Assembly (NCBI GenBank): GCA_029261815.1
Contig: JAJDAQ010000054.1
Location: 155 to 64,154 of the forward strand
Length of the DNA: 64,000 nucleotides
Direction: 5' to 3'
From: Deltaproteobacteria bacterium
Lineage (GTDB): Bacteria > Myxococcota_A > UBA9160 > UBA6930
Part shown: positions 28,616 to 46,700 of the stretch, piece after piece
How positions within the stretch are numbered: position 1 is the first letter of the stretch
Layout: each line of letters opens with the position of its first letter
Notes under the pieces: generated by a model
Told to the model about the DNA's origin: nothing
The model's input: the letters and a program-made list of their open reading frames with translations, nothing else
Database searches by the model: none
Made by a program: the position numbers and the translations under genes

Positions 28616-29898
28616 CCTTCCTCCTCTTCGTCGTCCACTCGTTCGAGCGGTGCCGACGTGATGTCCAGAATCGGAGCCCAGCTACCACGCTCGGTCCAGG
28701 CTCCAGTCGTGGTGACGCCGTCGCGCGCCGCGGTCGTGACCCGGTACCGGTACGGCTTGTCCATTCGGATGGCGACCGGGAAACGGAGCGTTCGGGCATA
28801 AAGGTCCGGTTGGCTGAACAGGAACTTGGCGTCGATCGGAACGCGGCGTCCGCCGACGGCCTCCGCCTCCAACTCGATCTTCGTGTAGAACAGATCCGGG
28901 CGTTGGCGATTGGCGAAGTCGTAGCAATAGACCTTGACCGCCGCGTAGCCGGGCGGCGCCTTCTCGTTGAAGTCGACACGTTCAACGAGTTCCGGCCAAC
29001 GTGCGACATCGATCGAGATCCCGGTCGCCCCCGCACGCACCATCTGGGATTCGACGGGCGCCTCGAAGGTCGCCTCGTCGAGCGAGAGATCGCCGGGCCG
29101 ATCCTTGCCGCGCGCCTTGCGGTCGAGCTTGCGAAGTAGCTTGGCGGCGACGCCGGTGGGTCGATCGTCGGCGATCGGAACGCCCTGGGCCCGTAGGTTC
29201 TCGATCAGGTCTTCTTCGATCTCGGACTCCGTAGACATCGCCGAGACCTGGGCGTGCTCCGCGCTGTGGACACCCTTGCTGAAGAACGCGTACGAGACAC
29301 TCAGCGCCACCTTCCCGCGGTTCATCATCTCGAGCAGGAGCGTAGCCGTGTGCGGGTCCATCGGAACCGTAAACACGCGCTCGCGCCAATAGGCATCTCG
29401 GCTCGTGCGGCCACCCTTCGAGCCGTCAGCTTCGAAATAGCCTTCCTCGACGACCTGGGGTTCGACGCCGCTCTCGCCGATGGGTGCGTAGGCCAGCAAC
29501 GCCTCGAAGCGGCTGATCGGCAACGGGCGAAGCTCGGCGCGCCCGAGGTTCTCGTAGGCGAGCAGTGCGCGGCGGAGGAAGCGAAGCTCGGCCGGTCCCG
29601 GTGCATCCATCCGCATGTGGAAGGTCAGCGTGTTGAGCGCACCGAACTCTCCCTGGTTTCCATAGGCGGCCGTGCCCGTGTAACGCATCTGCAGGAACCG
29701 GACATCGGGGCGCCCCGTCAGGTCGCGCACGATCTCGAGCCCGCCGGGAGCGAAATAGAACAGACGGCTGTCGTCGAAGTCCGGATAGGTGACGAACTTC
29801 CCAATTTGGCGCGGTGCGCTCAGATCCGGCGCGGCCTCGAGCGCCAGTGGCGCCAGAAACAACGGGAGGAGCAAGAGCATCAGGACTGACCGCGGCAT
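28612..29898 (-). CDS. secreted protein, YYxP-module paralog E (short; different C-terminal module)
   Basis: ORF 28612..29976(-). The start is ATG 29898, overlapping the F stop by 1 nt (TGATG). The signal peptide is MPRSVLMLLLLPLFLAPLALEA. The N-module aligns with A-D: TYPDFDDSRLFYFAPGG, VRFLQMRY, ELRPLP, RERVFTVPMDPHTATLLLEMM..VALSVSYAFF. The tail is DDEEEEG. Confidence 0.8.
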   Translation of the reverse strand: MPRSVLMLLLLPLFLAPLALEAAPDLSAPRQIGKFVTYPDFDDSRLFYFAPGGLEIVRDLTGRPDVRFLQMRYTGTAAYGNQGEFGALNTLTFHMRMDAPGPAELRFLRRALLAYENLGRAELRPLPISRFEALLAYAPIGESGVEPQVVEEGYFEADGSKGGRTSRDAYWRERVFTVPMDPHTATLLLEMMNRGKVALSVSYAFFSKGVHSAEHAQVSAMSTESEIEEDLIENLRAQGVPIADDRPTGVAAKLLRKLDRKARGKDRPGDLSLDEATFEAPVESQMVRAGATGISIDVARWPELVERVDFNEKAPPGYAAVKVYCYDFANRQRPDLFYTKIELEAEAVGGRRVPIDAKFLFSQPDLYARTLRFPVAIRMDKPYRYRVTTAARDGVTTTGAWTERGSWAPILDITSAPLERVDDEEEEG

Positions 29899-32009
29899 CA
29901 GGGTTCCGGCTCTCCCAGCGCGGATCTCAGGGAGGCGGAACCGAGCAGGTAGTCGAGCCTTCGTGACTCGAGCCACATCGACTCCCGGATACTCCCGTCA
30001 CGCATCACGATGTCGAGCTTGTACTCGTAGAACGGCTCCTTGGCGTCTCCTCGGTTCATCTCGGCATCGGTCAGGAACAGACGCGCGATCGGAACCTCCT
30101 CGCCATCCTCCTCCAATACGACCGCGGGTCGGGTCAGCACACGCGTGCGCTGTGGGTCGAGGAACTGGGAGCGCACGTGGACCAGGATCTGATGGGCCCC
30201 CGTCGACTCGAAGACGTCGCCCGTGGTGAACACGAGCTGCCGCGTGGAAGGCGGCGGCGGAATGAACTTCTCGGTGAAGACGAGATCGTCGCAGGGCTCG
30301 CAGTCGCCTTCGACCGAATACCGCACCCAGAGCAGCTTGGCCGTTCTGTCGACCCAGCCCGGAACCTGCTCGGCTTGCCAGATCACTTTGTCGCCCGGTG
30401 CGGCGACGGGGTCGCCGAGATCCCATGTCAGGATGACGGGTTGATCCTTGCGCAGCCCGTTGCCATCACTCGGCGAAAGCAGCAGGGCATGCAGGCTGTG
30501 CAGCCGGATCGGATAACGCGAGCCGTTGGTCCAGCCTCCGCGACGATCGAACGGAATGCGACCGAAGGTCTCGGGTTCGGCGACCGCGATCTGCAACGGG
30601 ATGGACCGCGAGAAGCGCGACTCCCCAGCCGCGTGCAACACGACGCTGCCATGGATTCCGGCGTCGGTGCGCAGGAGGCTCTCGACGTTGAGCAGGCGCT
30701 GGATGTCGGTGGCCCAGGAGACATCCATCGAACCGAGCAACCCGGAGATTCCCTGGACGCTGATCTTGTCGGGCGGAATCGTGAACTGGTTCTCGGCACC
30801 CCCAAAGAGTTCGACGTTCGAGCTCGAATCGAGCGGCAGCGGCCGCAGCTCGCGGAAGCGCATGCTGCCGTCGGGGTGGTTGCGACGCAGATACGCGCGC
30901 AAGAGATCCTCGGCGATCCGCAGTTCGGCGAGATTGACCCCGGCGCGCAGACGCGCCGCCATGAAGACTTCGCCGTCCGAGGATTGCTGTCCCGCCATCC
31001 CGTAGATGACCGTCATCGCGTACTGCTGCAGCGGATCCCACTGCAGGTCGTAGCGCTTGGGCGCGTAATAGAAGAGCCCGGTCTGCGGGTTCTCGTCCTG
31101 ATAGACGTGGTGGTCGATCTGCAGGATCTGTCCCTGGTGCAGCTCGATCTGACGATCGACGCGCAACCCCTCGAACAGGTTGATCGCTTGCAGCTGGCTC
31201 GGCCCGCGGATGTCGCGCATCTCGGCCAGCTTTTCGGCCGTGCGTTGCTGGCGCTCCGCGCGCATCTCGCCGATCTCCTCGACCTTCTCGCGCAGGATGT
31301 CGTACACACGACCCTGTTGCTCGACCTCGAGTTGTCGGCGGCGCTCCATGATCTGCATGCGTTCCATGCTCTCGAGGTAGGTCGCAAGCGGATCCGCTGC
31401 AGGCTCGGCGGCCGGAGTGGGCGCCTGCGTCGGATTGGGCGGTACTGGATTGAGGGTCGGCCGGCCGGTGTTAGGCCGGGTGTTGACGTTGTACGCGCCC
31501 ACGGCGGGTGCTGGTTTGTTGTACGTGGTGGTCGTCGGCGGTGGACTCGCCTGGACGGGCACGGCCACTCGCTGGGGAATGATCACGTTGGTCGTCGTGA
31601 CCGCGGTCGAGGGCTTGGCCGACAGACTCTGCGTGTAGACCGTGGCGCTCGGTCGGTAGACCAGCATCCCGGCCGACTGGGTTCGGGAGAGCGAAGTCGT
31701 CGCTAGGAGCTCGGAAGTCGTCGCCCGGCTTCGCACGTCCGGATTTGGGGCTGCTGGAGCCCCGACGAGCAGCTCTGATGCCGTCGCCGGCAACTGGGCG
31801 CTCGCGTCCACGCTCCGCCCCGAGACCAGCTCCCGGGCCAGCCCCACGGCTTCGGGCACGATCACCACGGTCTCCGCGAGGGCGGCGCCCCCGGTGGTCA
31901 GAACCAGCGCAGTCACAGCCAACCACCAGACGGTTGTCAGACGGGCGTCCGGGCGCGCCGACGGGGCCTCCCCCTGGTGTCCGGCTGCGTGCTCGCCCTG
32001 TCGCTCCAT
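29898..32009 (-). CDS. membrane-anchored protein, YYxP-module paralog F (S/T/P-rich stalk plus coiled coil)
   Basis: ORF 29898..32126(-). The start is ATG 32009 (MERQGEH), 5 nt after GGAGGAGGG. Has a TM/signal anchor TTVWWLAVTALVLTTGGAALA, a long S/T/P-rich segment and a charged heptad-like segment MERRRQLEVEQQ...AEKLAEMRD. The shared module then follows: NPQTGLFYYAPKRYDL, ELRPLPL. Confidence 0.8.
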   Translation of the reverse strand: MERQGEHAAGHQGEAPSARPDARLTTVWWLAVTALVLTTGGAALAETVVIVPEAVGLARELVSGRSVDASAQLPATASELLVGAPAAPNPDVRSRATTSELLATTSLSRTQSAGMLVYRPSATVYTQSLSAKPSTAVTTTNVIIPQRVAVPVQASPPPTTTTYNKPAPAVGAYNVNTRPNTGRPTLNPVPPNPTQAPTPAAEPAADPLATYLESMERMQIMERRRQLEVEQQGRVYDILREKVEEIGEMRAERQQRTAEKLAEMRDIRGPSQLQAINLFEGLRVDRQIELHQGQILQIDHHVYQDENPQTGLFYYAPKRYDLQWDPLQQYAMTVIYGMAGQQSSDGEVFMAARLRAGVNLAELRIAEDLLRAYLRRNHPDGSMRFRELRPLPLDSSSNVELFGGAENQFTIPPDKISVQGISGLLGSMDVSWATDIQRLLNVESLLRTDAGIHGSVVLHAAGESRFSRSIPLQIAVAEPETFGRIPFDRRGGWTNGSRYPIRLHSLHALLLSPSDGNGLRKDQPVILTWDLGDPVAAPGDKVIWQAEQVPGWVDRTAKLLWVRYSVEGDCEPCDDLVFTEKFIPPPPSTRQLVFTTGDVFESTGAHQILVHVRSQFLDPQRTRVLTRPAVVLEEDGEEVPIARLFLTDAEMNRGDAKEPFYEYKLDIVMRDGSIRESMWLESRRLDYLLGSASLRSALGEPEP

Positions 32010-32165
32010 CGAGGCCCTCCTCCTGCTCAGCTCGGCCGTGGTGCCAAGAGTGTCCAGATGTTGAAGCCCCGCTTCGATGGCAGCTTGCCGGACCCGAGGC
32101 GAAACCGAACGACGTCCAGGCTGCATGAAAGCGTTTTCCGTGCGCGGCCGCGAGCCCGGGCGAGT

Positions 32166-34856
32166 CTAATCGGAGGCATTGTCATCTCTGCGGTCTTCAA
32201 CGTCCTGGCCCGCCCTCGCGGCCAGCCGGTCGAGCAGGTCCGAGAATACCGGCAACTGGCGGACGGCTTCTGCGAAGGCGCTGCTGATGTTCACAGTCAG
32301 GTGGACCGGCCTTCCGTCCTGAAAATTCGGATTGCGGCCCTTCAACAGCACCCTCATCTCGGCGCCCTCGTCGAGTTGTCCGGACGCCTGGACCTCGAGT
32401 GACTCGTAGTGGAAGTCCCTCAGTGCCTCCATCAGGATTTCGCCCTGCGACCCGGTGCCCGCAATGGCAGCCGCGGACCCGGTGGGCGCATAGCGCAGCC
32501 GTCCGCCTCCGGGTGCCTGGAACCGGGCACCCCGCAGCACCGGCCGGCCCGAGACCAGGGCCAGCTCAAATCTGCCGGTGAGCCAGCCGGAAATGTCGAG
32601 TCCCTCGACGGGGGCAAGCGCGAGAAGCGATGCGATATCGAGATCGTCCGCTTCGAACGTGAGACCCTGGTCTGCTCTTCCGGACAGATCCAGCGTCCCC
32701 TCGATCCGGACCTCCCCGCCGGCCAGACGGAAGCGCCCCTCCCGGATGACGAGATCATCCGGCCCCGCCAGTGCCCACTGCAGCGCGCCCTCCTCGAGCA
32801 CGAGGTCGGGCGCCAACTCCACCCGCGAGAAGACGAGATCCTGATCGGGCGCGGTCTCCAGGGGATCGAAGCCGACCAGCCGTGCCGACGCCTGCAGCCC
32901 CTTCGCTCGGGTCGATCCGACGCCGACCGCGGCACGCCGGACGAATACCTGGATGTCGGGACGGAGCTGTTCGCCCCACTGCAGGGTTCCGGCGCCCTCG
33001 AGTTCGCCCGCCTCCACCTCGAGCACCTCGGCGAGGGCTGGAATCAGCGCTGCGAAGTCGACCCCGGTTTCGCCGAAGCGCACCGGAGCGAGTTCGAATG
33101 ACACACTCCCTTTTCCATCGACGAGCGAGTGGGCCCCGCTCCCCCGAAGCCGAGCACCCTGTGGCGAGCGAGCGTCGAACCCGAAGGTCGCTGAATCTGG
33201 ACCTCCGGAGATCTGCCCCTCCACCGCCAACTCGGCAACCACGGGGTTCTGACGGCCGATCCTCAACCGCGAGACCGAAAAGGGTCCGGAGAACTCGGAA
33301 CCCGACGGCGTCCAACGCGCGGCAACGGGCGCCTCGATGCCGGCCAACGCCACGTCCGCGAAGGGGAGTGCGAACTCGCCTCCGCTCGCCACGACCTGCG
33401 CTCGGATCTCTTCCGCCTCGCGAACGGCCTCGACACGCACGGTAGGCGTCGTCCCGCTCCACCAGGCCTCGCCGCGCAGGGGTCCCACTTCGAGTTCGAA
33501 CGGCTCGATCTCGATCGTCCCGGCGAGGCTTGTGTCCCCGTCCGCATCCGATTCAACCACGAGAGGACCCGCCGCGGGACTCTTCACGCATAACGATGCG
33601 TCTTCCCACAGCCGTGCCGCGCCGGCCAGGTCGCCGGCATCGACTTCGAGGGAGAGGCAGCGCCCCCCCGTATGGACGCCCAACCGCCGCCCGTCCCACT
33701 CGATTTCGAAGTCGCCCGCGATGCGCCCGGACGGGACCGCATCCGGTCGTCCGCTGCCCATGACCGCTCCCTCCAGGTGGACGTCCATTTGCGCAGCATC
33801 GGTGCTGATCGCGCCCTTCCCCTGGATCGCAATCGAACCGGTCCCGTCTGGAAACTCCCACGCATCCGCAAACATGGAAAACGCAGCCTGCGCAGCCGCT
33901 CCCGGCTCTGCGTCCCAGGCCATGTCAAGTCCGGCACGAAACGGAAGCGTGCTCTGGTCGGCACGAACCAGGGCCGCCTGCCCCACATCGACACTCAACG
34001 CACCGTCTCGATAGGTGGCGTCGACGACGGCTCGGGCACGCTCGATCTCGAGGACGGGATCGATTACGGCGACGACGGTTGCGTGGAGCTCCGCGAACGC
34101 GACCGAGTCAACAAGCGGGGTCTGGTTGAAGATCGGACCGCCGAGTTCGGCATGCGCGCGCAGCTCGGCGTCGACCGAGTCCACACCGGCCATCCCGAAC
34201 AGTTCGAGGAGTTCGCGCGGGAACCTGCCGACCAGGTGGGCATCGACGCGGGGCGATGCCAACTCGAGGGAGCCCCGCAGCCCGGGGTCCGAGGAAGCCT
34301 CGGGGGCATCTCGCAACGGACCCACCGGCCCGGCCTGGAACTCGAGATCTCCCTGCCAGTCGTTCGTGAGATCGGCGGCGCCGTGCGCCTCGATCCGCCA
34401 TGGATCCCCTCCCACTGTGGTCACGAAGACCAGGTCCTCCGCATGGATCGCACGCGGCAACCAGGAGTCGCGCAGGGAAAAACCCCTACCGACCTCGTCC
34501 GACTCCTCGCCCATGTCGAGTTCGTTCCCACACACGGACCAGCCCGCGGGAATTCGTTCGACGCGGCATCGAATACCGCGGACCGTTGCGCGGTCCAATC
34601 GGCGCGCCAGCAGGCCGCGGGCGCTCCACTGGAGACTCGCATGCTCGATCTCAAGGTCGCCGATCGAGGTGCGCGCCAGAGCAACGCCACTCCAGCCGAT
34701 CTCTTCGACCTCCACTCGCGTGGGGCCGAAGCCGTTTTGCTCCAACAACCCCGGGCCCCAGCGCTCGAGCGCGACTGCGATCATTCCAGGGAGACCGAGC
34801 ACCAGGAGCATGAGTACCGCGAGCGCAGCCGTGAGTCCTTTCACAGCACGCCACAT
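32166..34856 (-). CDS. ydbH: YdbH-like AsmA-family protein (intermembrane bridge-type)
   Basis: ORF 32166..34856(-), 896 aa. Has an N-terminal anchor LTAALAVLMLLVLGLPGMIAVAL and a long repetitive beta-rich body. The C-terminus GRLRYAP...EALRDFHYESLEVQASGQLDEGAEMRVLLKGRNPNFQDGRPVHLTVNIS fits my recollection of the DctA-YdbH domain. The operon also carries YnbE/YdbL-like sequence. Confidence 0.65.
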   Translation of the reverse strand: MWRAVKGLTAALAVLMLLVLGLPGMIAVALERWGPGLLEQNGFGPTRVEVEEIGWSGVALARTSIGDLEIEHASLQWSARGLLARRLDRATVRGIRCRVERIPAGWSVCGNELDMGEESDEVGRGFSLRDSWLPRAIHAEDLVFVTTVGGDPWRIEAHGAADLTNDWQGDLEFQAGPVGPLRDAPEASSDPGLRGSLELASPRVDAHLVGRFPRELLELFGMAGVDSVDAELRAHAELGGPIFNQTPLVDSVAFAELHATVVAVIDPVLEIERARAVVDATYRDGALSVDVGQAALVRADQSTLPFRAGLDMAWDAEPGAAAQAAFSMFADAWEFPDGTGSIAIQGKGAISTDAAQMDVHLEGAVMGSGRPDAVPSGRIAGDFEIEWDGRRLGVHTGGRCLSLEVDAGDLAGAARLWEDASLCVKSPAAGPLVVESDADGDTSLAGTIEIEPFELEVGPLRGEAWWSGTTPTVRVEAVREAEEIRAQVVASGGEFALPFADVALAGIEAPVAARWTPSGSEFSGPFSVSRLRIGRQNPVVAELAVEGQISGGPDSATFGFDARSPQGARLRGSGAHSLVDGKGSVSFELAPVRFGETGVDFAALIPALAEVLEVEAGELEGAGTLQWGEQLRPDIQVFVRRAAVGVGSTRAKGLQASARLVGFDPLETAPDQDLVFSRVELAPDLVLEEGALQWALAGPDDLVIREGRFRLAGGEVRIEGTLDLSGRADQGLTFEADDLDIASLLALAPVEGLDISGWLTGRFELALVSGRPVLRGARFQAPGGGRLRYAPTGSAAAIAGTGSQGEILMEALRDFHYESLEVQASGQLDEGAEMRVLLKGRNPNFQDGRPVHLTVNISSAFAEAVRQLPVFSDLLDRLAARAGQDVEDRRDDNASD

Positions 34857-34915
34857 CGATTCGATGCTACACCCTGATGCGATTGCAGGTAAACCACGCT
34901 GGAGGACCGTAACGG

Positions 34916-37144
34916 ATGCGGTCGAGGCTCACTTTCCTACCGCTCATCCCGTGGCTCGCCGTCTGTGCCGCTCTGACAGTCGCACTCGCGCCGCTGAGTG
35001 CGCGCGCGGAGTCGCGCGCGCTGTTGATCGGCATCAACGAGTACGTTGCCGTGCCGGATCTGCGCGGTGCGCTCAACGACATCGAACTCGTGCGCGGCAT
35101 CCTGATCGATCGCTTCGGTTTCGCCGCATCCGACATCGAGATGATTGTCGACGATGACGCCACGCGAGAAGGAATCCTGCTCGGCCTCGATCGACTCGCC
35201 GAGCGGACGAACCCGGGCGATATCGTCTACCTCCACTACTCGGGCCACGGCTCACAGGTCGCCGACTTCGACGGCGACGAGGCCGATGGCCGTGACGAGA
35301 CGCTGATCGCCCAAGATGGTCGGACCCCGGGTGTTCCCGACATCACCGATGACGAACTGGGCGACAAGCTGGCCGCCATCCCCGCCGAGACGCTGGTCGT
35401 CGTCCTCGACTCCTGCCATTCCGGGACCGCGACCCGCAGCCTCGGCGCACTTAGCGTCGGCACGGACCTCCTCGGCGGTTTGCGGCCACGCTTCGTTCCC
35501 GCCGACGACCGACTCGATCTCTACCGTGGGCTCCGCCGCGACGGCACCCGGACCCGATCCGTCGTGCCTCTTGCCACGAGTGGACATGTCCTATTGACGG
35601 GCGCGGCCTTCAACGAGGAAGCACTGGACGGCCCGGTGGATTCCAAACTCCACGGCCTGTTCTCGTACGCGCTCGCCCAGACCCTGCGCCGTTCCGCGCC
35701 GGACGCGACGCCGTCTCAGGTGTTCAGCCAGGTCGGACGCGAGTTCGAGCGCATCCGGGCGCAGTTGAGCCTGCGCAAGATGCCGAACCCCCAGCTCGAG
35801 GCCGAGGCCGACCGGCTCGAAGCCCCGCTCTTCCCCGCCCCGTCGACCCCCGCGCCCGGCGCCCCGCCCGCCGATTTGGCGCGCCTCGCCTGGGTCGGCG
35901 CCTCGCCGTCAGGCGCCGGACGCGCCCGACTCGCGCGCGGCTTTGCCGAAGGGGCGACGTTGGGTGCCCTCTGGGCCATCTACCCTCCAGGCGAAACCCG
36001 CTTCGAGCCTGGCGCTGCACTCGCAGAGGCCGAGATCATCGAACGCGACGGCGCCGACGCCATCGCCCAGCTCGACCCGCTAGACGCCGAGGTGCCGAAC
36101 GGTGCGCGCGCCGTCGTGATCGCGCCGCCGCCCGCGGCCGGCGACATCCCCATCGTGATTGCCGGCGGGGAAGCATCGCGCGTCGAGGCGTTGCGGACGG
36201 CCCTTCAAACGCGACTGGAGACGCTCCGTTTCGTCGACTCCGATGAGTTCGCGCGCTTCGTCATCCGACTCGACGGCGACGAGTGGACGGTGACGGGTGC
36301 GGACGGATTGTTCGAAATCGCGCGCGTCGACGCGTCGGACGTGGCTGGTGCTGCCGATCGCCTCGCCCAACGCCTGGCCCGCTCGTTGACGGCCTCCGAA
36401 CTGCTCGCACTCGACAATCCATCCACCACGATCGACCTCGAACTAACCGTCGTGGCCGAGGAGCCGGCGACGCTTTCGCAAGGCGACGAGCGCGGAATGG
36501 TCCTGGTTGGCTCGAACGATTCCGCGCTGTTCCGCATCCGTCGCGATGGCGAGCCTCGATCGCGGCGCAACAGTCTCCAGTTGCGCGTTCGATCCTCTGT
36601 GGAGTGCTACCTGACCGTGGCCGATGTCGATTCGGAGGGCGGCGTCCACGTCCTGTTCCCCAATCGCTTCTCCGACGCGAAGGGATATTTCGAAGGCGGC
36701 CGACTCCCCGCCGAGCAGGAGTTGCTGATTCCCGACTCGCTCCAGTCCGGCAACGCAGCCGGATTCCACGTCGACTACGCACCGCCGGCTGGAACCGACA
36801 CGGTCCGCGCCTTCTGTTCCGAAGACGCGCGCGCCGCGGACGCGCTTCGCAGCGCGTTGGCGAGCCTCGACCCTTCTGGCAACACCGGCTCTCCGGCCGC
36901 TCGCGGAACTGGCTTCGATCGATTGCGACGTCAACTCGCCCGCCTGGCATCGCGCGGAATGAAGCTGGTACCGGACGAAGTCGCGGAACCGGTGCTCGCC
37001 GAAGCGACCCCAGAGGACGAAGCCGCCGCCCCGATTCCGGAGCCGCCGGTCACGGTCCCCGACGCCCCGGATGCGAGTCCCGACTCCCAGCGTTGGTTCG
37101 CGGACTGGACCGCTTCGTCGGTCACGATCGAGGTGCGGGAATGA
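34916..37144 (+). CDS. secreted caspase-family (peptidase C14) protein with C-terminal DUF4384-like domain
   Basis: ORF 34916..37144(+), with GGAGGA upstream. The signal peptide is LTFLPLIPWLAVCAALTVALAPLSARA. The dyad motifs are LHYSGHG and VVLDSCHSG. The C-terminal CYLTVADVDSEGGVHVLFPN...LLIPD...GTDTVRAFCSE is DUF4384-like. Confidence 0.85.
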   Translation: MRSRLTFLPLIPWLAVCAALTVALAPLSARAESRALLIGINEYVAVPDLRGALNDIELVRGILIDRFGFAASDIEMIVDDDATREGILLGLDRLAERTNPGDIVYLHYSGHGSQVADFDGDEADGRDETLIAQDGRTPGVPDITDDELGDKLAAIPAETLVVVLDSCHSGTATRSLGALSVGTDLLGGLRPRFVPADDRLDLYRGLRRDGTRTRSVVPLATSGHVLLTGAAFNEEALDGPVDSKLHGLFSYALAQTLRRSAPDATPSQVFSQVGREFERIRAQLSLRKMPNPQLEAEADRLEAPLFPAPSTPAPGAPPADLARLAWVGASPSGAGRARLARGFAEGATLGALWAIYPPGETRFEPGAALAEAEIIERDGADAIAQLDPLDAEVPNGARAVVIAPPPAAGDIPIVIAGGEASRVEALRTALQTRLETLRFVDSDEFARFVIRLDGDEWTVTGADGLFEIARVDASDVAGAADRLAQRLARSLTASELLALDNPSTTIDLELTVVAEEPATLSQGDERGMVLVGSNDSALFRIRRDGEPRSRRNSLQLRVRSSVECYLTVADVDSEGGVHVLFPNRFSDAKGYFEGGRLPAEQELLIPDSLQSGNAAGFHVDYAPPAGTDTVRAFCSEDARAADALRSALASLDPSGNTGSPAARGTGFDRLRRQLARLASRGMKLVPDEVAEPVLAEATPEDEAAAPIPEPPVTVPDAPDASPDSQRWFADWTASSVTIEVRE

Positions 37145-37650
37145 CTCCCGCTCGAGAGGTTCATGCAATGCATCGAAGACACTCCCTGCACGCGATCCTG
37201 GGCTGCGCCTTGCTCATGGCGAGCAGCTTCGCAGTCGGCTGCTCGTCGGGTGGCGGCGTTCAACCGGTCAGCCAGATGCGCTACGTCGACTCGCAGATCT
37301 GGGAGAAACAGCTCCAGGCATCGCTAGGCGCCGGGTTGCCGACGGTCAACGTCGCCTTCGCGGGCAAGGATGCCACGATGAGCAACATGCCCGAACGACT
37401 CGAGAAATGGTTGTTCGTGATCAACGAACGCGACGATGGCAACGTCCGCTTCGAGCCGGACCCCGGCTTCGCGGCACCAAAGAGCCCGATCGGCCTCGTG
37501 TTCACCGTCGGCATGCAGGCGTGGCGGCTGTTCTCGGAGTACGCGCACTACGCGCCGGCCGCGAATTACAATGCGCTGGTCTTCTACCACCCGACCGAGG
37601 CCTATCTGACCAAGGTCGTGTTCGTCCGCAAGGCCGGCGCGGATTCCTAG
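37141..37650 (+). CDS. probable lipoprotein, unknown family
   Basis: The 3' part of track ORF 36283..37650(+). ATG 37141 overlaps the caspase stop (ATGA); an alternative ATG is at 37168. The lipobox is MASSFAVGCSSGG. Confidence 0.6.
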   Translation: MTPAREVHAMHRRHSLHAILGCALLMASSFAVGCSSGGGVQPVSQMRYVDSQIWEKQLQASLGAGLPTVNVAFAGKDATMSNMPERLEKWLFVINERDDGNVRFEPDPGFAAPKSPIGLVFTVGMQAWRLFSEYAHYAPAANYNALVFYHPTEAYLTKVVFVRKAGADS

Positions 37651-37662
37651 CAGGAGATTCCC

Positions 37663-38931
37663 ATGCTTCGCGCATCCACCGATCCGACTCGTTCGCCCGC
37701 GGGACCCACCGGGCCGCGATCCAGTTTCTTTCGCCGAGCCGCGATCGTGACCATCGTCGCCCTATCCGTCGGCGCCGTTTCGTGCAGGAGCATCGAGAAA
37801 TCGCTGCCGTACCTCGTCGTGGCAGGCGGTGCAATCGCATCGGTCGTGGCGCTCAACTACCTGTCCGACTGCACGAGCGAATGGGCAGTATGCAGCGCCG
37901 ACCCCTTCACCGGCGAAGAAGTGCGCGACCTCGGGTACACCGAACAGGTCCTGATGATGATCGGGACGATCACCACCGTCGGGGGTGCTGCGGCCGATTA
38001 CTGGGTGGAGGCTCGCGAGAAGCAGCGCGAACTCGCGCGCCTCGACGAAGTCGAGCAGCGGGTCGAACAGGAGTACGCCCAACTACAGGGTGGACCGCCG
38101 GTTTCGGCGTGGGGTGCGCCGCCGCAGGCGTCGCCCGGCGCGACCCGCTGGGGCCAGGCGCCGAGCCAGAACCCGGGTTACGGATGGGCCCAGGCCCAGC
38201 CGAACCCGCAGGGAGCACCGCCCTACGGAGGTCCGCCCGGCAGCGGCGCACCGGGCGCGGGTGCGCAGGCAATGCCACCGCAAGCCGGCGGACCGCCGCA
38301 CGGAATGCCCAAGGGCGTCCAGCCGCGGAGCTTCTCGGAACCGATGGCCATCGACACCGCGCTACTCAAACGCGCCGGGAACCAGGCCATTCCGGTTCCG
38401 GACAACGACATCCTGTTCGATGGCATTGGCGAGTCGATCCGGGACGAATTCCGCGTGCTCTTCAGCCCCAACCAGGAAGCCTGGGTCTACGTCGTCGGAA
38501 TCGACGCGGTCGGACGTGCGCAGCCGCTCTACCCCCAACGCTTCCCGGACGACAGCAATCCGATCCGCCCGGGTGAAAAGGTCCTGCTGCCCAGCGGCGA
38601 CGACTGGTACGGGCTCGATCAGTACACGGGGCTCCAGCACGTCTACTTCTATGTCAGCCCGGAACGGGACGAGAACCTGGAGAAGCAATTCGCGGTGCTC
38701 GCGTCGAAGCCGCCGCCCGAACCCTCGCGCGTCAACGGACAGGTGTTCTACGTCGATACGCCGACGGTGCTCCAGTACGGCCGCACGCGAACCAAGGGAC
38801 TGGTCCTGCCGACCGCGGGCTCGGCCCTGCGAATTCCCGGCGACGCGGCCATCGAGATTCCGACGGCCCGGGTCACGGGTACGGTGCCGGGTGAACCCAT
38901 CGTCGCGACCCGGGTCTTCCAGCACCAATAG
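37663..38931 (+). CDS. membrane protein with Gly/Pro/Gln-rich linker and C-terminal DUF4384-like domain
   Basis: ORF 37663..38931(+), with AGGAG upstream. Has hydrophobic helices near the N-terminus and a low-complexity PQ/G-rich linker. The C-terminal AWVYVVGIDAVGRAQPLYPQ...VLLPSGDDWYGLD...HVYFYVSPE is DUF4384-like. Confidence 0.7.
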   Translation: MLRASTDPTRSPAGPTGPRSSFFRRAAIVTIVALSVGAVSCRSIEKSLPYLVVAGGAIASVVALNYLSDCTSEWAVCSADPFTGEEVRDLGYTEQVLMMIGTITTVGGAAADYWVEAREKQRELARLDEVEQRVEQEYAQLQGGPPVSAWGAPPQASPGATRWGQAPSQNPGYGWAQAQPNPQGAPPYGGPPGSGAPGAGAQAMPPQAGGPPHGMPKGVQPRSFSEPMAIDTALLKRAGNQAIPVPDNDILFDGIGESIRDEFRVLFSPNQEAWVYVVGIDAVGRAQPLYPQRFPDDSNPIRPGEKVLLPSGDDWYGLDQYTGLQHVYFYVSPERDENLEKQFAVLASKPPPEPSRVNGQVFYVDTPTVLQYGRTRTKGLVLPTAGSALRIPGDAAIEIPTARVTGTVPGEPIVATRVFQHQ

Positions 38932-38942
38932 GTTCGTCGGCC

Positions 38943-40307
38943 GTGTCCAATGGAGTCGCCAGCGGCCGCGGTCGGATCATCGCAGAGACCCTGCTCTATG
39001 TGACCGCTGGGATTCTCGCCGTCGTCATGCTTCGTGCACTCGACGATTGGCCGTGGTTCCAAACCCAGCAAGATCGCGTCATGGACTGGATGATCTCGAT
39101 TCACGCGGGAACGGACCCACTCGGCTACGAAGGCCCGCCGTTCGTGTTCATCGACATCGACGAACGCACGCACCGTGAGTGGGGAGAGCCGCATCGGGTT
39201 CCGCGACTTCCGCTCGCCGACATGATCCAACAGGCCAGCGCAGCGAACGCGGCCGCGATCCTCGTGGACATCGACCTGAGCGGCGCGCGCACCCCCGCAG
39301 ACGTGCCGCTCGAACGAGCGCTCGAGCAGGTCGGCAACGGACCGGTTCACGTCCTGCTGGCCCGCACCTTCCGATTGCCCCTCGGCGCGGGGAAGAGCAA
39401 CTCCCTCGAAGAACGCGCCTCGTTCCTGGATCCACTCGCGGCATCGGCGCCGTTCGTGAGTTTCGCGTCGACCCTTTTCGGACGGGAAGACGATTGGATG
39501 ATCCGGCGCTATCGGTCCTTCGAGCCGACGTGCACGGCTGGCGTGCCCAATGTCATACCGGCCATGCATCTCGTGGCCGCCGCGATCCTGCTGGAACCGG
39601 CCGAGGGTCAGGACCGCGTAACGGAACTGCTGAAAGGCCAGCTTCCGGTGTGCGACGGCAGCATGCGGGCGGCACCTCCGCGCGCATCCGCCACCTTCGG
39701 CGATGTCGAAGTCACCGTGCCGAGCGACCGCATGTCGCGCCGCATCCTTTATGGGGCCATGCTCTCCAGCCCCGCCGGGGGCTTTCGAGCGCCCGACATA
39801 CGGTTCCGCGGTGCGCAGGTGCCGCTGTTTACACGTGTCTCGGCTGGCGCCCTCTTCGGCGCTTCGCGCATCGACCCGGCGATGCTCGAGGGTCGGATCG
39901 TCATGATCGGCGCGAGCCACGCCGACAGCCGAGATGTCCACCGGACCCCGGTCGGCGATCTGCCCGGCGCCGTGGTCCTGATGAACGCGACCTACTCATT
40001 GATGCGTTTCGGCGGGCTCCGCGTCCCACCAGGCTGGCTGTTCCTTGCGGCCCAGGTCATCGTGATCGCGGCCCTGAGTTTTCTCTTCGCTCGCTTCAGT
40101 CTCTACTGGGCGGCCCTGCTCGGCCCGGTGATCATTGCGGTACTCATGGTCCCGCTGTCATTGTGGTTGTTCCGGCGCGGCCTCTGGCTCGACGTCGCGA
40201 TCCCGTTGGTGATCGTGCAGAGTTTTACGCTGCTCCAGAAACACTCCGCCCAGTTCCGACGCATGCGCGATGCGGCACGACAGGCCAACGAGAAGGAGGC
40301 GCAGTGA
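38943..40307 (+). CDS. CHASE2 domain membrane protein without recognisable output domain
   Basis: ORF 38943..40307(+), with a GTG start. Has an N-terminal TM helix and a periplasmic CHASE2-like region (FVFIDIDERT, ILVDIDLSG, IVMIGASHADSRDVHRTPVG). Three C-terminal TM helices follow, then only a tail of about 20 aa. Confidence 0.7.
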   Translation: MSNGVASGRGRIIAETLLYVTAGILAVVMLRALDDWPWFQTQQDRVMDWMISIHAGTDPLGYEGPPFVFIDIDERTHREWGEPHRVPRLPLADMIQQASAANAAAILVDIDLSGARTPADVPLERALEQVGNGPVHVLLARTFRLPLGAGKSNSLEERASFLDPLAASAPFVSFASTLFGREDDWMIRRYRSFEPTCTAGVPNVIPAMHLVAAAILLEPAEGQDRVTELLKGQLPVCDGSMRAAPPRASATFGDVEVTVPSDRMSRRILYGAMLSSPAGGFRAPDIRFRGAQVPLFTRVSAGALFGASRIDPAMLEGRIVMIGASHADSRDVHRTPVGDLPGAVVLMNATYSLMRFGGLRVPPGWLFLAAQVIVIAALSFLFARFSLYWAALLGPVIIAVLMVPLSLWLFRRGLWLDVAIPLVIVQSFTLLQKHSAQFRRMRDAARQANEKEAQ

Positions 40308-41227
40308 AGTTTCTCCTTCCGTTTCTTGCCCTGGCATTGCTCGGCGCGACGGCCGCCAGCGCCGAACGCGTGCAGACGGGCTTCGTAGAGGGCTTCGACG
40401 GTTCGGCCGACGGGTATGCGATCGAACGCGGAACGGAATCGATCCGGGTTTCGGTGCTGACGCCGGTCGAGGTCGGCGACCAGATCAGGGTGCACGAGGA
40501 CGACGGCGCGATCCGGCTGATGCTCGGCGGGACGCGCTCAACGCTGATTCAACACGCCCAGGACGGCTTCGTGGTGCGCGGGGGCGAGCGTGGCGCGACC
40601 GTACTGGGCAACCTCGCCGACTGGTTGTTCGCGTGGGCGGTCCCGTCCAACGCCCCGGGGTCAAACATGCGTGTGTCGTTGACGACGCGGGGCCTCCAGG
40701 AACTCGAGAGCCAACTCTGTGACCCAGAGGTGATCCAACAAATTCGCGCCGGCCGCGACACCATGCGAGTCGCCTGGTCCGGTGGCGTCCTCCCGATCCG
40801 CGTCGAGTTGTGGGAGGGCGAAACCCTTCGCTCACTCACGACGTCGTTCGACGCCGCCCGCGCACTCCTGGCCTTTCCTCGCGCCCAGGTCTCCGGGCCG
40901 AGAGAAATCCGGATCGTCGACGCGAGCGGCCAGCAGATCTCCTGGCAAGTGGCCGAAGTCGCCGCCGGTGTCCAAAGGCCGCTTGCGCTCGAGTCCAATG
41001 GGCTCCCCCCAGTCGAACGAATCATGGGGGCGCTCGAACGCCTGGCGGAAGGTGGTGCTGCCGCCCGACTCGAGGCGTATCAGGAGTTCTCCGAGATGTC
41101 CGGATCCTACCCGCCCGCAGCGGTCCTCCTCGATGCGCTCGAGGCGGGCCGAAGCCCGAACCGACCTCCCCCTTGGGCCAACGGCGAGGAACGGTCCCTC
41201 AATCGAGAGACGTCTCCCAGACCGTGA
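40304..41227 (+). CDS. secreted protein with FecR-like N-terminal beta domain
   Basis: The 3' part of track ORF 39179..41227(+). GTG 40304 lies after AAGGAGG and overlaps the CHASE2 stop (GTGA). The signal peptide is KFLLPFLALALLGATAASA. GFVEGFDGSADGYAIERG...VEVGDQIRVHEDDGAIRLMLGG fits the FecR-domain pattern. Confidence 0.5.
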   Translation: MKFLLPFLALALLGATAASAERVQTGFVEGFDGSADGYAIERGTESIRVSVLTPVEVGDQIRVHEDDGAIRLMLGGTRSTLIQHAQDGFVVRGGERGATVLGNLADWLFAWAVPSNAPGSNMRVSLTTRGLQELESQLCDPEVIQQIRAGRDTMRVAWSGGVLPIRVELWEGETLRSLTTSFDAARALLAFPRAQVSGPREIRIVDASGQQISWQVAEVAAGVQRPLALESNGLPPVERIMGALERLAEGGAAARLEAYQEFSEMSGSYPPAAVLLDALEAGRSPNRPPPWANGEERSLNRETSPRP

Positions 41228-42863
41228 AGAAGGACTCTTCGTGCACGGGCGCCACGGTCTGTCCGTCCCGGTCCACGAGGAACGCACCGTGGGTGCCCGC
41301 AAATAGCAATGGCATCCGAAGCCGCGTGGCGTGCAGGATCGCGGCCCTGCGGAATTGCTCGATCGCGACGGTGGAGGCGCCGAAACCATCCAGGTCCGAT
41401 GGAACGACGAGCAAGTCGGCATCGCCGCGTGAGATACCGCGGCGCTGAAAGATGCCGGGGACCAGGATCTCCCAGCACAGCGCGGATCCCGCACGTCGTC
41501 CGGCATCCAACGAGATCGTGCCCTGGGTCCGCTCTGCGACGAGTTGGGTATAGGAACGGCCCATGACCCGCTCCGAGATCCAATGGCCCAGGCCAGCAAG
41601 ACCGGCTTGATCCTGGAACAACGCCGACTCACCGAGCGGCGCGAAGACCAGTTTGTCGACCGGGTCGGCGCAGGTCAGGCGCCGACCCGCATCCACCGAC
41701 AGACGGCACGCGACGTTGCGCATCTCGCGAACCCACACCCGTTCCCGAACCAGCGCGAAGGCACCAGCGACGACGGACATCGATCCGGGCCGGAAGGGCG
41801 GCGCGGAATCGAGTTCGCGCGGCCCGAGTTTGACGCTGTACTCCGGCAGAACGACGATCTCGCAATCGAGGCCATGCTCGGCTCGTTGCAGGAGCGCCGA
41901 GACGGCGACGTGCCCGCCCCCATCGAATGCCGCACTCCCTTGCTCGACCCGGAATGGATCCGATACCGCACACACGCGGACCTCACCCGGCGCGCGGGCC
42001 GACGCATCGGCGCCCGGCCGGACGCCGGCCGCCCGAGGAGCGAACCACGCGAGGACCATGCCCAACGCGAAGACGCCGGCGAGGCTGCGCACGAGCCCCC
42101 ATCCTGCCGCGTGTCTCAGGAGCAGCGCAGTCACCAGCCCAATCGTCGCGACGGCGAGGCCCTGCAACCATTCGCCCCCCGCGCCGTCGAAGAGCGCGGC
42201 CAGCGGAAGGAGTCCACTCTCGGCGGTGGCGTGGGCAAGGAAAAGTCCTGGCAGGGGCGGATCCATCCAACCGCCGCGCACCCAATCGATGAAGGCCCAG
42301 AGCACGGGCGCCGCCCCTAGTGCGGCACCGCGTTGCGCCAGGCTACGCGTCGCACCTCCTGCAAACGCCCATAGGACGGCCGCGATCAGTCCCGTTGCCA
42401 GGGCCGGAAAAGCCGGCCGATCGAAGTAGTGGAAGATCCAAGCCGCGGAGCCCAGGATCTGGCCGGCTCCGGCGAGGCCCGCGAGCAGCGCCGCATCGCG
42501 GATTCGCCGAGCGCCCAGGATCGCCATGAACAGCGGCGCGATCATGAATGGAGTGAGCAGTGCAGGAGCGAGCGGCAGCTGTGCCCAGGCCGGAATCGAG
42601 ACCGCCAGCCACTCCAGCAAGGCACGCAACGTCGCCCCGCGGAGCGCGAAGAGCACGGCCAGCGAAGCGAACTGGATCGACACCATCCGCTGCGCGAGCG
42701 TCACGTCGCCGGCGGCGAGGCCGACCATTCCGCCGTCAGCTCGGGGAAAGCCCAGCGCCGCCGCGAAACCGAGAACCGCGGCTCCGACGCAAACGAACCG
42801 AAGCGCCCGGCCGCGAGAGCCCGGACCGGGCGCGATGGATTCGGAGCCCTCTACTGGCTGCAC
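41199..42863 (-). CDS. apolipoprotein N-acyltransferase (Lnt)-like polytopic CN-hydrolase protein
   Basis: ORF 41199..43127(-). Has multiple N-terminal TM helices and then a nitrilase-type domain. Candidate E/K/C catalytic residues lie in VVLPEYS, DKLVFAPLGE and SALCWEIL. The start is uncertain: GTG 42863 (would include the first TM helix) or ATG 42728. No C-terminal TM helix is visible. Confidence 0.55.
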   Translation of the reverse strand: MQPVEGSESIAPGPGSRGRALRFVCVGAAVLGFAAALGFPRADGGMVGLAAGDVTLAQRMVSIQFASLAVLFALRGATLRALLEWLAVSIPAWAQLPLAPALLTPFMIAPLFMAILGARRIRDAALLAGLAGAGQILGSAAWIFHYFDRPAFPALATGLIAAVLWAFAGGATRSLAQRGAALGAAPVLWAFIDWVRGGWMDPPLPGLFLAHATAESGLLPLAALFDGAGGEWLQGLAVATIGLVTALLLRHAAGWGLVRSLAGVFALGMVLAWFAPRAAGVRPGADASARAPGEVRVCAVSDPFRVEQGSAAFDGGGHVAVSALLQRAEHGLDCEIVVLPEYSVKLGPRELDSAPPFRPGSMSVVAGAFALVRERVWVREMRNVACRLSVDAGRRLTCADPVDKLVFAPLGESALFQDQAGLAGLGHWISERVMGRSYTQLVAERTQGTISLDAGRRAGSALCWEILVPGIFQRRGISRGDADLLVVPSDLDGFGASTVAIEQFRRAAILHATRLRMPLLFAGTHGAFLVDRDGQTVAPVHEESFFTVWETSLD

Positions 42864-43765: not shown

Positions 43766-46700
43766 CTAATCGTCGGACGCCTCGAGTTCGTCCGTCAGCA
43801 GATCGCTTACGAATAGCAGCGGGAAGTTCGAGGTGCGCCTTCCGGTCTGGTACCCGCGACCTCCCGAGGCCATCCATCTCACTTCGTAGTCGAAATCAGA
43901 GGCCCCTTTGGGCAACATGAAATGGACGCGACTGGCAAGGTCGGGACTGCGCAACGTGGTCCGCTTCCGGTTCGTCTTCCCTGCGAGGTCGTAGTAGACG
44001 TCCACGACGGCCGCCCGCACGCCGCGTTCGTCCCAGCTGTCCGGGTCCGCATCGACATCGACGTAGGTGCGCTCGTAGGGTGGAAGCACCGCGATCGCAC
44101 TCGCGGTGGCCGGTTGCCATTCCCCTTCGACCGAATTGCCGCCGAAGAAACTCCAGAGCGCACGCCACTCGTAGCCCTGCCAGGCATCGCGATCGTCGTC
44201 GCCCTTCCAGCCGTACAAGAGGCTGAACTGGTTGTCGGATGCCTCTGCATTGGTCCGATCGATGCGGATTTCGTCCCGCGTGACCTCACCACTCTCGTGG
44301 GTCTTTCGCAGCTGTACGGTGACAAAGTTGATGTATTCCTTGAAGTCGTCGAGTTGCTTCATGTCGACGAAGACAGCGAGTTCGCGCTGCTTCAGGAATG
44401 CGTCATCCAGATTGACGCTCCGGAACACGCGATCGTCATCGAGATAGCGCCGGAGGCTCCCGATGTTCACTCCGAAGTCCACCGGAATCCGGGTTTCGCG
44501 GGACTTGTTGAAGTCGAGCTGGAACTTGAACTGGTGGCGCTGCTTTTTCATCTCGAACTTGGCAACGACGGCGGTTGCATCCTCGACCGACGCCGCGCTT
44601 TCCCGAGCGTCATCGGCCTCCTCTTGCAACGAGTTGGCCCTGGCGCGCTGCTCGCTCGCGATCGTCTCGTAGCGCGTCCCCTCGCCCTGCACGTAACTCA
44701 CCCAGCTGGCCAATTCGGCCGCGGGCGTATCCGCCAATTGCGTTTGCGTCGGGCAGGAAAAGGCACCGATGGTTGTCGCAGCACTCGGTCGCGTCGAGGC
44801 CGAACTCGTCGTCGGGCGTCGCCCGGGGGTGGTCGCCGTCGGCCGGGTGCTCGTGGGGCGCGTAGGGGTCGGGCGGGTGCTCGTAGTCGCAGGACGCTGA
44901 CGGGTCGTGCCGGTCGCCGTCGTGTTGCGGCGCGTGCCGCTGGTACTCGCCGTCTGACTGGTCCGGGAACCGCTGTTAGGCCCCGTTGTGTTGCCAGCCG
45001 GAGGTGATGCCTGACGCCGCGTCCGGCGAGGCGGCGTACGCGTGGCGACATCGGTCGAGAGATCCGCTGACTCGTCGTCGATGCCACGCGGAGCCGGTGT
45101 CCCATCGGCGTTGCGGGGGGGCGAGGTCGAATTGCCACTCGGCGGTGTGCCACCACTTCCGCTCGAAGGAGACGGCGGCGCTGCCCCTGCGGGTCCGTTG
45201 GCCGGCGGATTCGCGGAAATCCGGACCGGCGGCAATGTCACAACGTCGTCGGGCCCTGACCCGCCAGCCGGAGGAGTCGCGTCTCCGGCCGGCCCCGATC
45301 CACTCCCATTCGTGGCAGGCGTCGGAGGCTTCACGCCGGCCGGTGTCGGGCTAGCGGCTCGCTGCGGCGGCGTCGGCGCGGGCGGTGTCGGGCTGGCGGT
45401 TCGCTGCGGCGGCGCCGGAGTGGGCGGTGTCGGGCTGGCGGTTCGCTGCGGCGGCGTCGGAGTGGGCGGTGTCGGGCTGGCGGTTCGCTGCGGCGGCGTC
45501 GGAGTGGGCGGTGTCGGACTAGCGGTCCGCTGCGGCGGCGTCGGAGTGGGCGGTGTCGGACTAGCGGTCCGCTGCGGCGGTGTCGGGCTGGCAGTCAATC
45601 CCGGCGCCGGAGGAGACGGCGGTGCGGTGGGGCTGGCACTCAACAAGGACGGCGTCTGGGTGACGGTCCCGCCCTGCGTTCGGATCTGCGCCGCGACGGC
45701 CGCGATCTGGCGCAGCTTTTGTTCCGACGCTGCCGAATCGAGTGTGCTCTTCGTCGCTTCGTAGTCCTCGACGAGCCTCCGGTGGCGTTCCGTAAGCTGC
45801 TCGAGATCGGCCTTCTCCCGTTCCTCGCCCGCCTGGCGATTCGCAAAGGCCGTCACGGTCTGGATGCAAGATCGAGCAGCCTGCGCGTTCTGCTCGGCCT
45901 GGGTCGCGAGGTTGCGGGCTTCGGTTGCCTCGGTCTTGGCACGGGTGGCGGCGGCGAGGCGCTCACTACGCCGGTCATCGCGAAGTTTCTCGGCCGCAGT
46001 CATCAGGTCGTCCCCGCCGGTCGAAGCAGCCGCCATCTGTGTTCGGCCCGCGGCGACCAACCCGGTCGAGGGGTTGAACATCAGGTCTCGCAACTTGTCG
46101 TAGGTCTCGTCGATCAGCTCCTCGACTTTCGCATCCGTCCCGACCTGGGTGATCTGGATGGCGCCCGATTGCTTCAGCTCATCGAAGGCGACATCGATCT
46201 GGGCCTGGGTCATCGGAGCCGAGATCCCCGCCTGGAACCGTTGGTGGTCGTAGATCTGGTCCCAATCGGCGACAAGCTTGGCGCGCACGGGCGTGCGGAA
46301 GCCATCGAGCTTCATCTTGAACGAGAAGCTCAGATCGGCGGTATCGGTATTGAAGCTCTCCCAGAGCCTCTCCACGCCGGCCTCGGTCAGCCGGATCGAG
46401 ATCGGTGCGCGCGCGCCCTCCAATACCGGCGCCGTGCCCGTCCCGACGACGGCTGTGGCGAGCGCGGGAAGCTCTCCTTCTCCGCTCCCCGTCGGCCCTT
46501 CCTGGGGTTGGAATTGGGTCACGAGCGCCAGCTCTCCTTCGCTGAAGGTCGCCGCGGCCACGATCTTGCCGGCGGGATTGAAATCCTTCAGTGCGCGCTC
46601 AGCCTCGCGGAGCGCTTCCTCCCGTTGGCTCTCCGGCACGCCGAGTTGGACCACCGCGTGCACGATGCCGTCGACCAGGGGCTGCGCCGCTTCCTCGGCG

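Follow-up and report, generated by a model that had tools for sequence, protein, structure and literature searches.

What does an exported caspase-type protease do when it is encoded together with a CHASE2 membrane protein, back to back with a ydbH-type operon? The question is raised by a 64,000-nucleotide stretch of a contig from a Deltaproteobacteria bacterium (NCBI GenBank assembly GCA_029261815.1, contig JAJDAQ010000054.1, positions 155 to 64,154; the whole stretch is referred to below as the window), in which five plus-strand genes, g1 to g5, form one operon at 34916-41227. In bacteria, caspase homologs have mainly been treated as enzymes of death or defence in the cytoplasm, and to our knowledge no ligand or mechanism has become known for the CHASE2 domain in twenty years. 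The five-gene operon is not a described system, and is instead a variant of the bacterial caspase homologs and of the CHASE2 accessory pairs. Comparison with related loci points to an exported clan-CD protease, a CHASE2 protein lacking an output domain and a small exported protein of an unnamed family (g5) acting together outside the cytoplasm, in a facultative association with the divergent ydbH operon.

An operon of exported proteins around a metacaspase-type protease

The first gene, g1 (34916-37144, plus strand; 742 residues), encodes a signal peptide (residues 1-31, ending ARA, with ES following), a Peptidase_C14 domain (Pfam accession: PF00656; residues 34-292, nucleotides 35015-35791, E 4e-25, 89.3 bits against a cut-off of 21.4) and, beyond an uncharacterised region, a DUF4384 domain (Pfam accession: PF14326; residues 553-636, nucleotides 36572-36823, E 1.5e-12, 47.9 bits against a cut-off of 27), with a conserved C-terminus of the form W[FY]ADW..S.T.EV[RK]E. 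A catalytic dyad of His111 (HYSGHG) and Cys167 (DSCHSG) is predicted; in the top PDB match found with phmmer, yeast metacaspase Yca1 (4f6o, E 4.6e-22), both the His and the Cys are aligned, and Cys167 pairs with the Ala of the 4f6p active-site mutant. Because this dyad is aligned with that of the metacaspases and is invariant in four g1 orthologs (59-62% identity), g1 looks like an active, exported metacaspase-type protease. It shares with the yeast and plant metacaspases (Yca1 4f6o, AtMC4 6w8s, AtMC9 8a53) a p20-type catalytic domain, which forms the best match and keeps the dyad, but differs from them in being exported, in being twice as long and in carrying DUF4384, and no recognisable p10 match is present in the alignment beyond residues ~172-292.

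The second gene, g2 (37141 or 37168 to 37650, plus strand), encodes a small lipoprotein with the lipobox AVGC (Cys34, counted from the start at 37141). No other product of the operon is as well conserved, and the g2 family, a rare one with 21 proteins among 5.8 billion, serves as a marker of the g1-g2-g3 core. Neither Pfam nor NCBIfam yielded a match for g2, and its family profile retrieved nothing from the PDB sequences. The third, g3 (37663-38931, plus strand; 422 residues), encodes a membrane-anchored protein with an invariant Cys41 and two or three hydrophobic segments (two conserved helices beyond Cys41), followed by a coiled coil, a Pro/Gln/Gly/Tyr-rich linker of variable length, another DUF4384 domain (residues 261-334, nucleotides 38443-38664, E 2e-10, 41.0 bits against a cut-off of 27) and a conserved C-terminal TRVFQHQ. 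DUF4384 matches were also found in the g1 and g3 orthologs. The operon is completed by g4 (38943-40307, plus strand; 454 residues), a CHASE2 membrane protein without an output domain, and g5 (40304-41227, plus strand; 307 residues), an exported protein with a signal peptide for which a structural model was predicted.

The genes are joined by 4-nucleotide overlaps or by gaps of 11-12 nucleotides, with 12 nucleotides between g2 and g3, 11 between g3 and g4, and a GTGA overlap between g4 and g5; at the g1/g2 junction, a g2 start at 37141 gives an ATGA overlap and one at 37168 a 23-nucleotide gap, the latter position matching the start chosen by the gene caller in the identical contig L002. Third-position guanine plus cytosine (G+C) content is high in all five frames, as for real genes, and the G+C content of the window is 63-68%. 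The start of g1 lies 59 nucleotides from that of a YdbH-like gene on the minus strand (34856), and the intervening divergent region (34857-34915) contains a conserved block and the g1 ribosome-binding site GGAGGA. A scan of 34500-41600 for consensus sigma-70 promoters and terminators returned no promoter-like site and no plus-strand terminator, and an Rfam search of the whole window returned no family. The DNA comes from a biofilm metagenome, and a search for RNA runs containing the sequence, made with co-expression in mind, retrieved none. An initial sequence-only reading of this DNA had proposed a secreted caspase, DUF4384-like domains in two products, linkage of the genes by ATGA or GTGA overlaps and 11-12-nucleotide gaps, a start 59 nucleotides from that of the ydbH-like operon, and export or membrane insertion of every product. 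These proposals agree with the Peptidase_C14 domain, intact dyad and signal peptide of g1, the Pfam matches in g1 and g3, the measured junctions (with an overlap between g1 and g2 depending on the start at 37141), the starts at 34856 and 34916, and the signal peptides, lipobox and transmembrane segments of the five products.

The CHASE2/g5 pair and the proteases beside it

A short CHASE2 gene lies directly upstream of a g5-like gene in 11 out of 11 readable contexts (the window, L001, L004, the P0025 contig, L007, L008, L009, L010, L013, L014/15 and the P0031 contig), a small sample chosen for contig size and not at random. Where enough flank is visible, an exported clan-CD protease usually adjoins the pair: Peptidase_C14 proteins stand on both sides of it in L008, one of them 54% identical to g1; a TPR-CHAT protein adjoins it in L010; an exported C14-like protein and a TPR-CHAT protein adjoin it in L014/15; and in L013, plasmid pAB510a of Azospirillum sp. 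B510 (NC_013855.1, ~1,132,900-1,137,800), a CHAT lipoprotein (787 residues), an output-less CHASE2 protein and a g5-like protein are encoded in a row. Fusions among the top representatives of the g5 family join CHASE2 to g5 (four proteins), g5 to Peptidase_C14 (one), g5 to TPR and CHAT (one) and g5 to TPR (one). The strongest evidence that protease, CHASE2 and g5 probably work together is this exchange of protease type, C14 or CHAT, around a constant CHASE2/g5 pair, with fusions to both. A literature search retrieved no paper joining the terms ‘CHASE2’ and ‘CHAT domain’. The L013 record is without annotation in the plasmid collection, and Azospirillum sp. B510 is a cultured organism, tractable for testing the trio. 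Beside the TPR-CHAT, CHASE2 and g5-like genes of L014/L015, at 1-2532, a further CHASE2 gene carries a fused guanylate cyclase domain and follows a gene for a secreted protease of the trypsin type, making this another case of CHASE2 paired with a protease.

The CHASE2 domain of g4 (Pfam accession: PF05226; residues 24-377, nucleotides 39012-40073, E 2.5e-23, 83.4 bits against a cut-off of 26.3) is set in a CHASE2-type topology of one plus three transmembrane segments, with hydropathy peaks at residues 12-30, 365-383, 392-410 and 413-431. No other Pfam domain was detected in g4, and no kinase, cyclase or GGDEF output. Because its predicted cytoplasmic tail comprises only the 23 residues that follow the last transmembrane segment, g4 does not, on this topology, qualify as a conventional transmembrane sensor. 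Elsewhere too, the CHASE2 proteins paired with g5-like genes are short (450-574 residues) and lack an output domain; the closest relatives of g4 are the CHASE2 genes preceding g5-like genes elsewhere (35-42% identity), and the CHASE2 proteins of CHASE2/g5 pairs are each other's closest relatives. The sequence-only reading had also assigned a CHASE2 sensor module to the operon, of which the domain itself stands, at the E value given above, and the usual role as a sensor module in signal transduction does not, in view of the missing output domain.

The g5 family consists of exported proteins of ~290 residues, for which an exhaustive HMMER search gave 542 representative clusters at E<=1e-3, or 204 at the stricter E<=1e-10; pattern scans with the g5 alignment found one locus each in genome contigs and metagenome contigs. 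The signal peptide of g5 ends ASA before E, and no other membrane segment is present. In an AlphaFold model (predicted local distance difference test (pLDDT) 84, predicted template modelling score (pTM) 0.81), a small N-terminal beta domain (residues 24-83) is followed by a helix (100-112) and then by an Ig-like sandwich (145-219), and the C-terminal part forms a helical hairpin (235-280). A Foldseek search of the PDB with the whole model yielded only generic Ig/FN3/macroglobulin-type matches with template modelling (TM) scores of about 0.1-0.2; FecR and PupR structures were absent from the top 50 of this search, which is dominated by the Ig-like middle domain.

The FecR-like domain (PF04773) that the sequence-only reading had placed in g5 could not be recovered, and that assignment was rejected on uniformly negative Pfam, NCBIfam, family, consensus and hhalign results. 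Pfam and NCBIfam searches at E<=1-10 returned neither FecR nor any other match, whether the query was g5, its N-terminal 93 residues or the nearest homolog; among 100 members of the family, FecR was matched by none, and no domain recurred consistently. The family consensus likewise gave no FecR match, with only sub-threshold matches to RodZ_C and BiPBP_C, and the family profile retrieved only Ig/PKD-like stretches from the PDB sequences. Aligned by hhalign with a FecR profile, itself small and of the sigma-regulator type (eight sequences, E. coli FecR and seven plasmid homologs), neither the family (100 sequences) nor the N-domain reached a probability above 2.5%. FecR-type sigma regulators have a cytoplasmic anti-sigma region and a transmembrane segment, with an extracytoplasmic function (ECF) sigma factor and a TonB-dependent receptor encoded alongside; g5 has only a cleavable signal peptide, and no ECF sigma factor or response regulator is encoded in or beside the operon. 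A second candidate identity, DUF928, was rejected with 0 of the 100 family members matching.

Exported accessory proteins beside CHASE2, inherited as a pair, are also found in the Burkholderia ‘BiofilmReg’ and P. aeruginosa PA4035-type pairs of FecR protein and CHASE2 kinase, in which, however, CHASE2 is attached to PAS/HisKA/HATPase output with a response regulator and the partner carries LysM and FecR, whereas g5 belongs to another family, lies downstream and not upstream of CHASE2, and is associated with a clan-CD protease (PMC5192318). The Nostoc punctiforme cluster of WD40, CHASE2 sensor and DUF928 genes resembles the present locus in its succession of CHASE2 and a small exported protein with WD40 nearby (WD40-caspase proteins are encoded in the window at 56160-58916 and in L014), but the g5 family has no DUF928 match, and that cluster is merely noted in the source, with no protease link drawn (PMC5587647). 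A caspase fold is joined directly to CHASE2 in a Trichodesmium metacaspase (PMC3501461) and in EACC2-caspase-CHASE2 proteins (PMC8195603); in those fusions a cytoplasmic location is predicted for the caspase and an extracellular one for CHASE2, so that the signal would run inward. Here, by contrast, the protease is itself exported and is encoded separately from CHASE2, and both lie on the outer side of the membrane.

Coupling to an expanded ydbH operon

In E. coli, the products of the ydbH-ynbE-ydbL operon form an intermembrane lipid bridge (PMC11126948, PMC13464000). The operon divergent from g1 likewise begins with a YdbH-like (AsmA-like) gene (32166-34856, minus strand; Pfam accession: PF11739, E 8.5e-44) and ends with a DUF1318/YdbL-type lipoprotein gene (20321-20869, minus strand; Pfam accession: PF07027, E 5.4e-22). 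Between them lie six further minus-strand genes for secreted proteins: m2 (29898-32126) and m3 (28612-29976), which share the N-terminal motif of the paralogs, and m4 (26762-28615), m5 (24513-26765), m6 (22656-24497) and m7 (20866-22656), identified as paralogs by BLAST within the window. Because a YdbH-like gene stands at the start and a DUF1318/YdbL lipoprotein gene at the end, and the same order recurs in L011 (YdbH, m2, m3, m4, m5, m6, m7, a Lipoprotein_19+DUF1318 protein, m8), the divergent operon is, by gene order and domain content, an expanded E. coli-type ydbH-ynbE-ydbL operon with six secreted proteins inserted. It differs from the E. coli operon in the presence of m2-m7 between ydbH and ydbL and in the attached protease operon, an expansion that is not described in PMC11126948 or PMC13464000. 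The YdbL-type protein of the window has a lipobox and no match to PF13617 (YnbE-type, Lipoprotein_19); PF13617 accompanies DUF1318 in a protein of the P0031 contig and, faintly, in the L011 ortholog. The gene for the window protein overlaps the m7 stop by 4 nucleotides and was hidden beneath a longer open reading frame call (20321-20977).

The paralog family has at least 390 members, some of them on megabase-size contigs, and no Pfam domain. Its N-domains carry the motif [YF]Y[YF]xP...FSFLRYV, found also in m2 and m3. In a model of m7 (pLDDT 79.6), the N-domain is folded and is separated by a disordered linker (residues 285-331) from C-terminal beta-sandwiches; Foldseek of this model against the PDB again gave only generic Ig/FN3/macroglobulin-type matches (TM about 0.1-0.2). 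A fifth paralog, d2 (43766-46993, minus strand; 1075 residues; BLAST within the window), lies on the far side of the five-gene operon, and its conserved N- and C-domains are separated by a linker of ~450 residues with Pro/Thr/Ser repeats. Most of the secreted paralogs (20866-28615 and 43766-46993 in the window, and those of L001 and L006) end in [FY]VDELPE at or near the C-terminus, the motif being weakest in m5.

Among related loci, the g1-g2-g3 core is present in the window, L001, L004 and L005, and L006 shows g2 and g3 with only the 3' end of an upstream gene, leaving g1 unconfirmed there. In the window, L001 and L004 the core is followed by g4-g5 as a unit; because unrelated genes take the place of g4-g5 in L005 and L006, the pair is, on this distribution, a separable accessory unit. 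In the window, L001, L004 and L005, g1 has a divergent minus-strand YdbH-like gene as its neighbour, with protein identities of 28-71%; within the L001 operon, one paralog separates g3 from g4; and on the unrelated P0031 contig, apparently without g1-g3, a CHASE2 and g5-like pair stands tail-to-tail with the 3' end of a YdbH...YnbE/YdbL operon, an arrangement that differs from that of the window. Judged by such gene order, the coupling of the five-gene operon with the ydbH operon is real but facultative, because synteny is kept at 28-71% identity and is reinforced by the L001 paralog and the P0031 contig, yet each partner also occurs without the other. The linkage to the divergent operon that had been read from the sequence is conserved in four loci, with the L001 paralog and the P0031 contig as further evidence, and an extracytoplasmic proteolysis module, as the same reading had it, finds support in an operon of exported and membrane proteins around a protease with an intact dyad. 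In L005, a JGI contig, the YdbH-like, m2-like and m3-like genes (5447-7767) are in pieces, probably through frameshifts or assembly errors, and g1-g3 are intact.

The region between the two operons contains an 8-mer, ATGCTACA (34864-34871), and a CAG ~15 nucleotides further (34886-34888), both invariant in four related loci with protein identities of no more than 28-62%. ATGCTACA reads TGTAGCAT on the strand of ydbH and lies 8-10 nucleotides ahead of the start codon of the YdbH-like gene, and the conserved block may be a regulatory or translational element common to these loci.

Downstream, a gene for a polytopic membrane protein (41199-42728, minus strand) is convergent with g5; its weak Pfam match (E 5e-8) covers the N-terminal membrane domain of Lnt only, and the gene is termed Lnt-N-like here. 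It shares 29 nucleotides with g5 at the 3' ends (41199-41227), and there is therefore no space for a terminator between them. The Lnt-N-like gene is also convergent downstream in L001 and L004, and lies further downstream in L006. Both operons sit in an island of ~41 kb (17520-58916) encoding nearly exclusively exported proteins, next to a left flank of ordinary metabolism (2261-13904). The island further contains a caspase-domain protein (17520-19589, minus strand), an Amidase_2 protein (47238-48035), an Aspzincin_M35 peptidase (48025-48783), an OmpA-like protein (49417-50466), a two-partner secretion (TPS) pair composed of a ShlB/POTRA TpsB protein (50522-52222) and a TPS-domain protein (52108-56037), and the WD40-caspase protein already mentioned (WD40+Peptidase_C14, 56160-58916).

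Possible substrates, competing explanations and meaning

The reading favoured here, tentatively and at a little under an even chance, is a two-unit extracytoplasmic proteolysis system, with g1-g2-g3 as its core under CHASE2/g5 control, coupled to the ydbH...ydbL bridge operon and with the paralogs as its likely clients. The core would comprise the g1 protease with its DUF4384 domain, the g2 lipoprotein, and g3 presenting the second DUF4384 domain on a long disordered linker; the two DUF4384 domains may bring g1 to g3, which could serve as tether, regulator or first substrate. The accessory unit g4-g5 would form a wholly periplasmic receptor or platform on the outer face of the inner membrane, without cytoplasmic signalling, and might gate or position the protease when a cue arrives from the envelope or from outside the cell. 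As clients or substrates, the six secreted proteins of the ydbH operon, with their N-domain, disordered linker and C-terminal beta-sandwich, would be the likeliest. Two precedents make the mechanism plausible, though they do not prove it. DUF4384, a frequent fusion partner of proteases, is the C-terminal domain in some of the Csx30 proteins, the substrates that the CHAT protease Csx29 cleaves (bioRxiv 10.1101/2022.08.17.504292), and in S. meliloti a protein signal elicits a response from the CHASE2 cyclases via an outer-membrane protein (PMC13001267). The type III-E Craspase (Csx29/Csx30) offers a likeness in its clan-CD protease with a tethered substrate, in the DUF4384 of some Csx30 and in the cleavage of Csx30 in a flexible linker, but it works in the cytoplasm, guided by RNA and with a link to a sigma factor, and nothing of this kind is found here.

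Several observations weigh against this two-unit system with paralog clients, and some of them lend themselves to a different account. Nothing in the fold searches hinted at a function for g5 or the paralogs, and the contexts sampled are few and selected by size. The paralog family is far commoner than g2 (at least 390 proteins against 21), and g4-g5 are absent from L005 and L006. Two further caspase-domain proteins are encoded in the island (17520-19589 and 56160-58916), and g1 therefore need not be the enzyme that acts on the paralogs. The paralog operon of L011 has no five-gene operon within its 10-kb flanks, and none of the listed g2 homologs, whose longest contig is 181 kb, maps to the L011 contig; that of L012 has no five-gene operon nearby and no YdbH gene within 10 kb. 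Conversely, neither YdbH nor paralog genes are visible around the CHASE2/g5/protease trios of L010, L013 and L014.

Such separate occurrences would be expected if the operon were an autonomous protease module of the envelope, used for example in proteolysis or lysis triggered by stress or directed at kin, with the ydbH neighbourhood as inherited synteny and the paralogs not as its clients, an explanation that is rather unlikely and yet outlasts the other rivals, the more so as the four divergent loci could share one ancestor. It has to contend with synteny that survives at identities down to 28-35% (YdbH, g5), with the paralog that has moved into the operon in L001, and with the P0031 contig, where CHASE2 and g5 stand by a ydbH operon in the other orientation and apparently without g1-g3, an arrangement for which inheritance alone is not an easy explanation.

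A sortase-like role is very doubtful, in which the clan-CD enzyme, acting as a transpeptidase, would process the paralog C-termini and anchor the paralogs to an acceptor, lipid or surface-borne, that the Lnt-N-like and YdbH-like proteins provide. Other clan-CD enzymes, such as the glycosylphosphatidylinositol (GPI) transamidase Gpi8, legumain and PorU of the type IX secretion system, do act as transpeptidases, which provides a precedent. The retention of the Lnt-N-like protein near the operon in four loci, the conserved [FY]VDELPE ends of the paralogs and the lipid handling of YdbH-type proteins (PMC11126948) would also fit. However, the terminal motif is known from alignment alone, the match to Lnt is weak and confined to the N-terminal membrane domain, and most paralog operons are without g1. 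Moreover, metacaspase-type C14 enzymes are known as hydrolases that cut after Arg or Lys.

An anti-phage or programmed-cell-death caspase system of the defence-island kind is less probable again and can be called highly unlikely: g1 and the two other caspase-domain proteins do match a PADLOC model, and the WD40-caspase protein at 56160-58916 is of a type typical of conflict systems, but the model matched is the generic ‘caspase’ one only, with no match for g2-g5, m2, m3 or m7, the signal peptide of g1 and its extracytoplasmic partners are unlike those of cytoplasmic defence caspases, and no NTPase, nuclease or gasdermin partner is present. Classical transmembrane signalling, in which a ligand in the periplasm would be detected by CHASE2 and a FecR-like protein and the signal passed to a regulator in the cytoplasm, is scarcely credible despite the known pairing of a secreted FecR-domain protein with a CHASE2 histidine kinase (PMC5192318) and the corresponding position of g5 relative to CHASE2, as g4 ends 23 residues past its last transmembrane segment with no kinase, cyclase or GGDEF domain, the CHASE2 proteins paired with g5-like genes are without exception short (450-574 residues), and g5 is negative in every FecR sequence test, with no ECF sigma factor or response regulator at the operon.

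The bolder generalisation of the proteolysis system proposed here, that output-less CHASE2 and the g5 family constitute a periplasmic receptor or activation platform for exported C14 and CHAT proteases, and that in this lineage the platform would govern the expanded YdbH-YnbE/YdbL lipid-bridge machine through cleavage of the disordered linkers in its secreted two-domain proteins, is unlikely as it stands; if it were true, the role of CHASE2 in these pairs would be to control proteolysis outside the cell and not to signal inward. The trio of exported clan-CD protease, output-less CHASE2 and g5, present also in the cultured Azospirillum sp. B510, provides a testable handle on the questions posed by bacterial caspases and by CHASE2. 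Its attachment to an enlarged ydbH...ydbL operon suggests that lipid-bridge systems can carry extra secreted components under proteolytic control, an idea not raised in PMC11126948 or PMC13464000.

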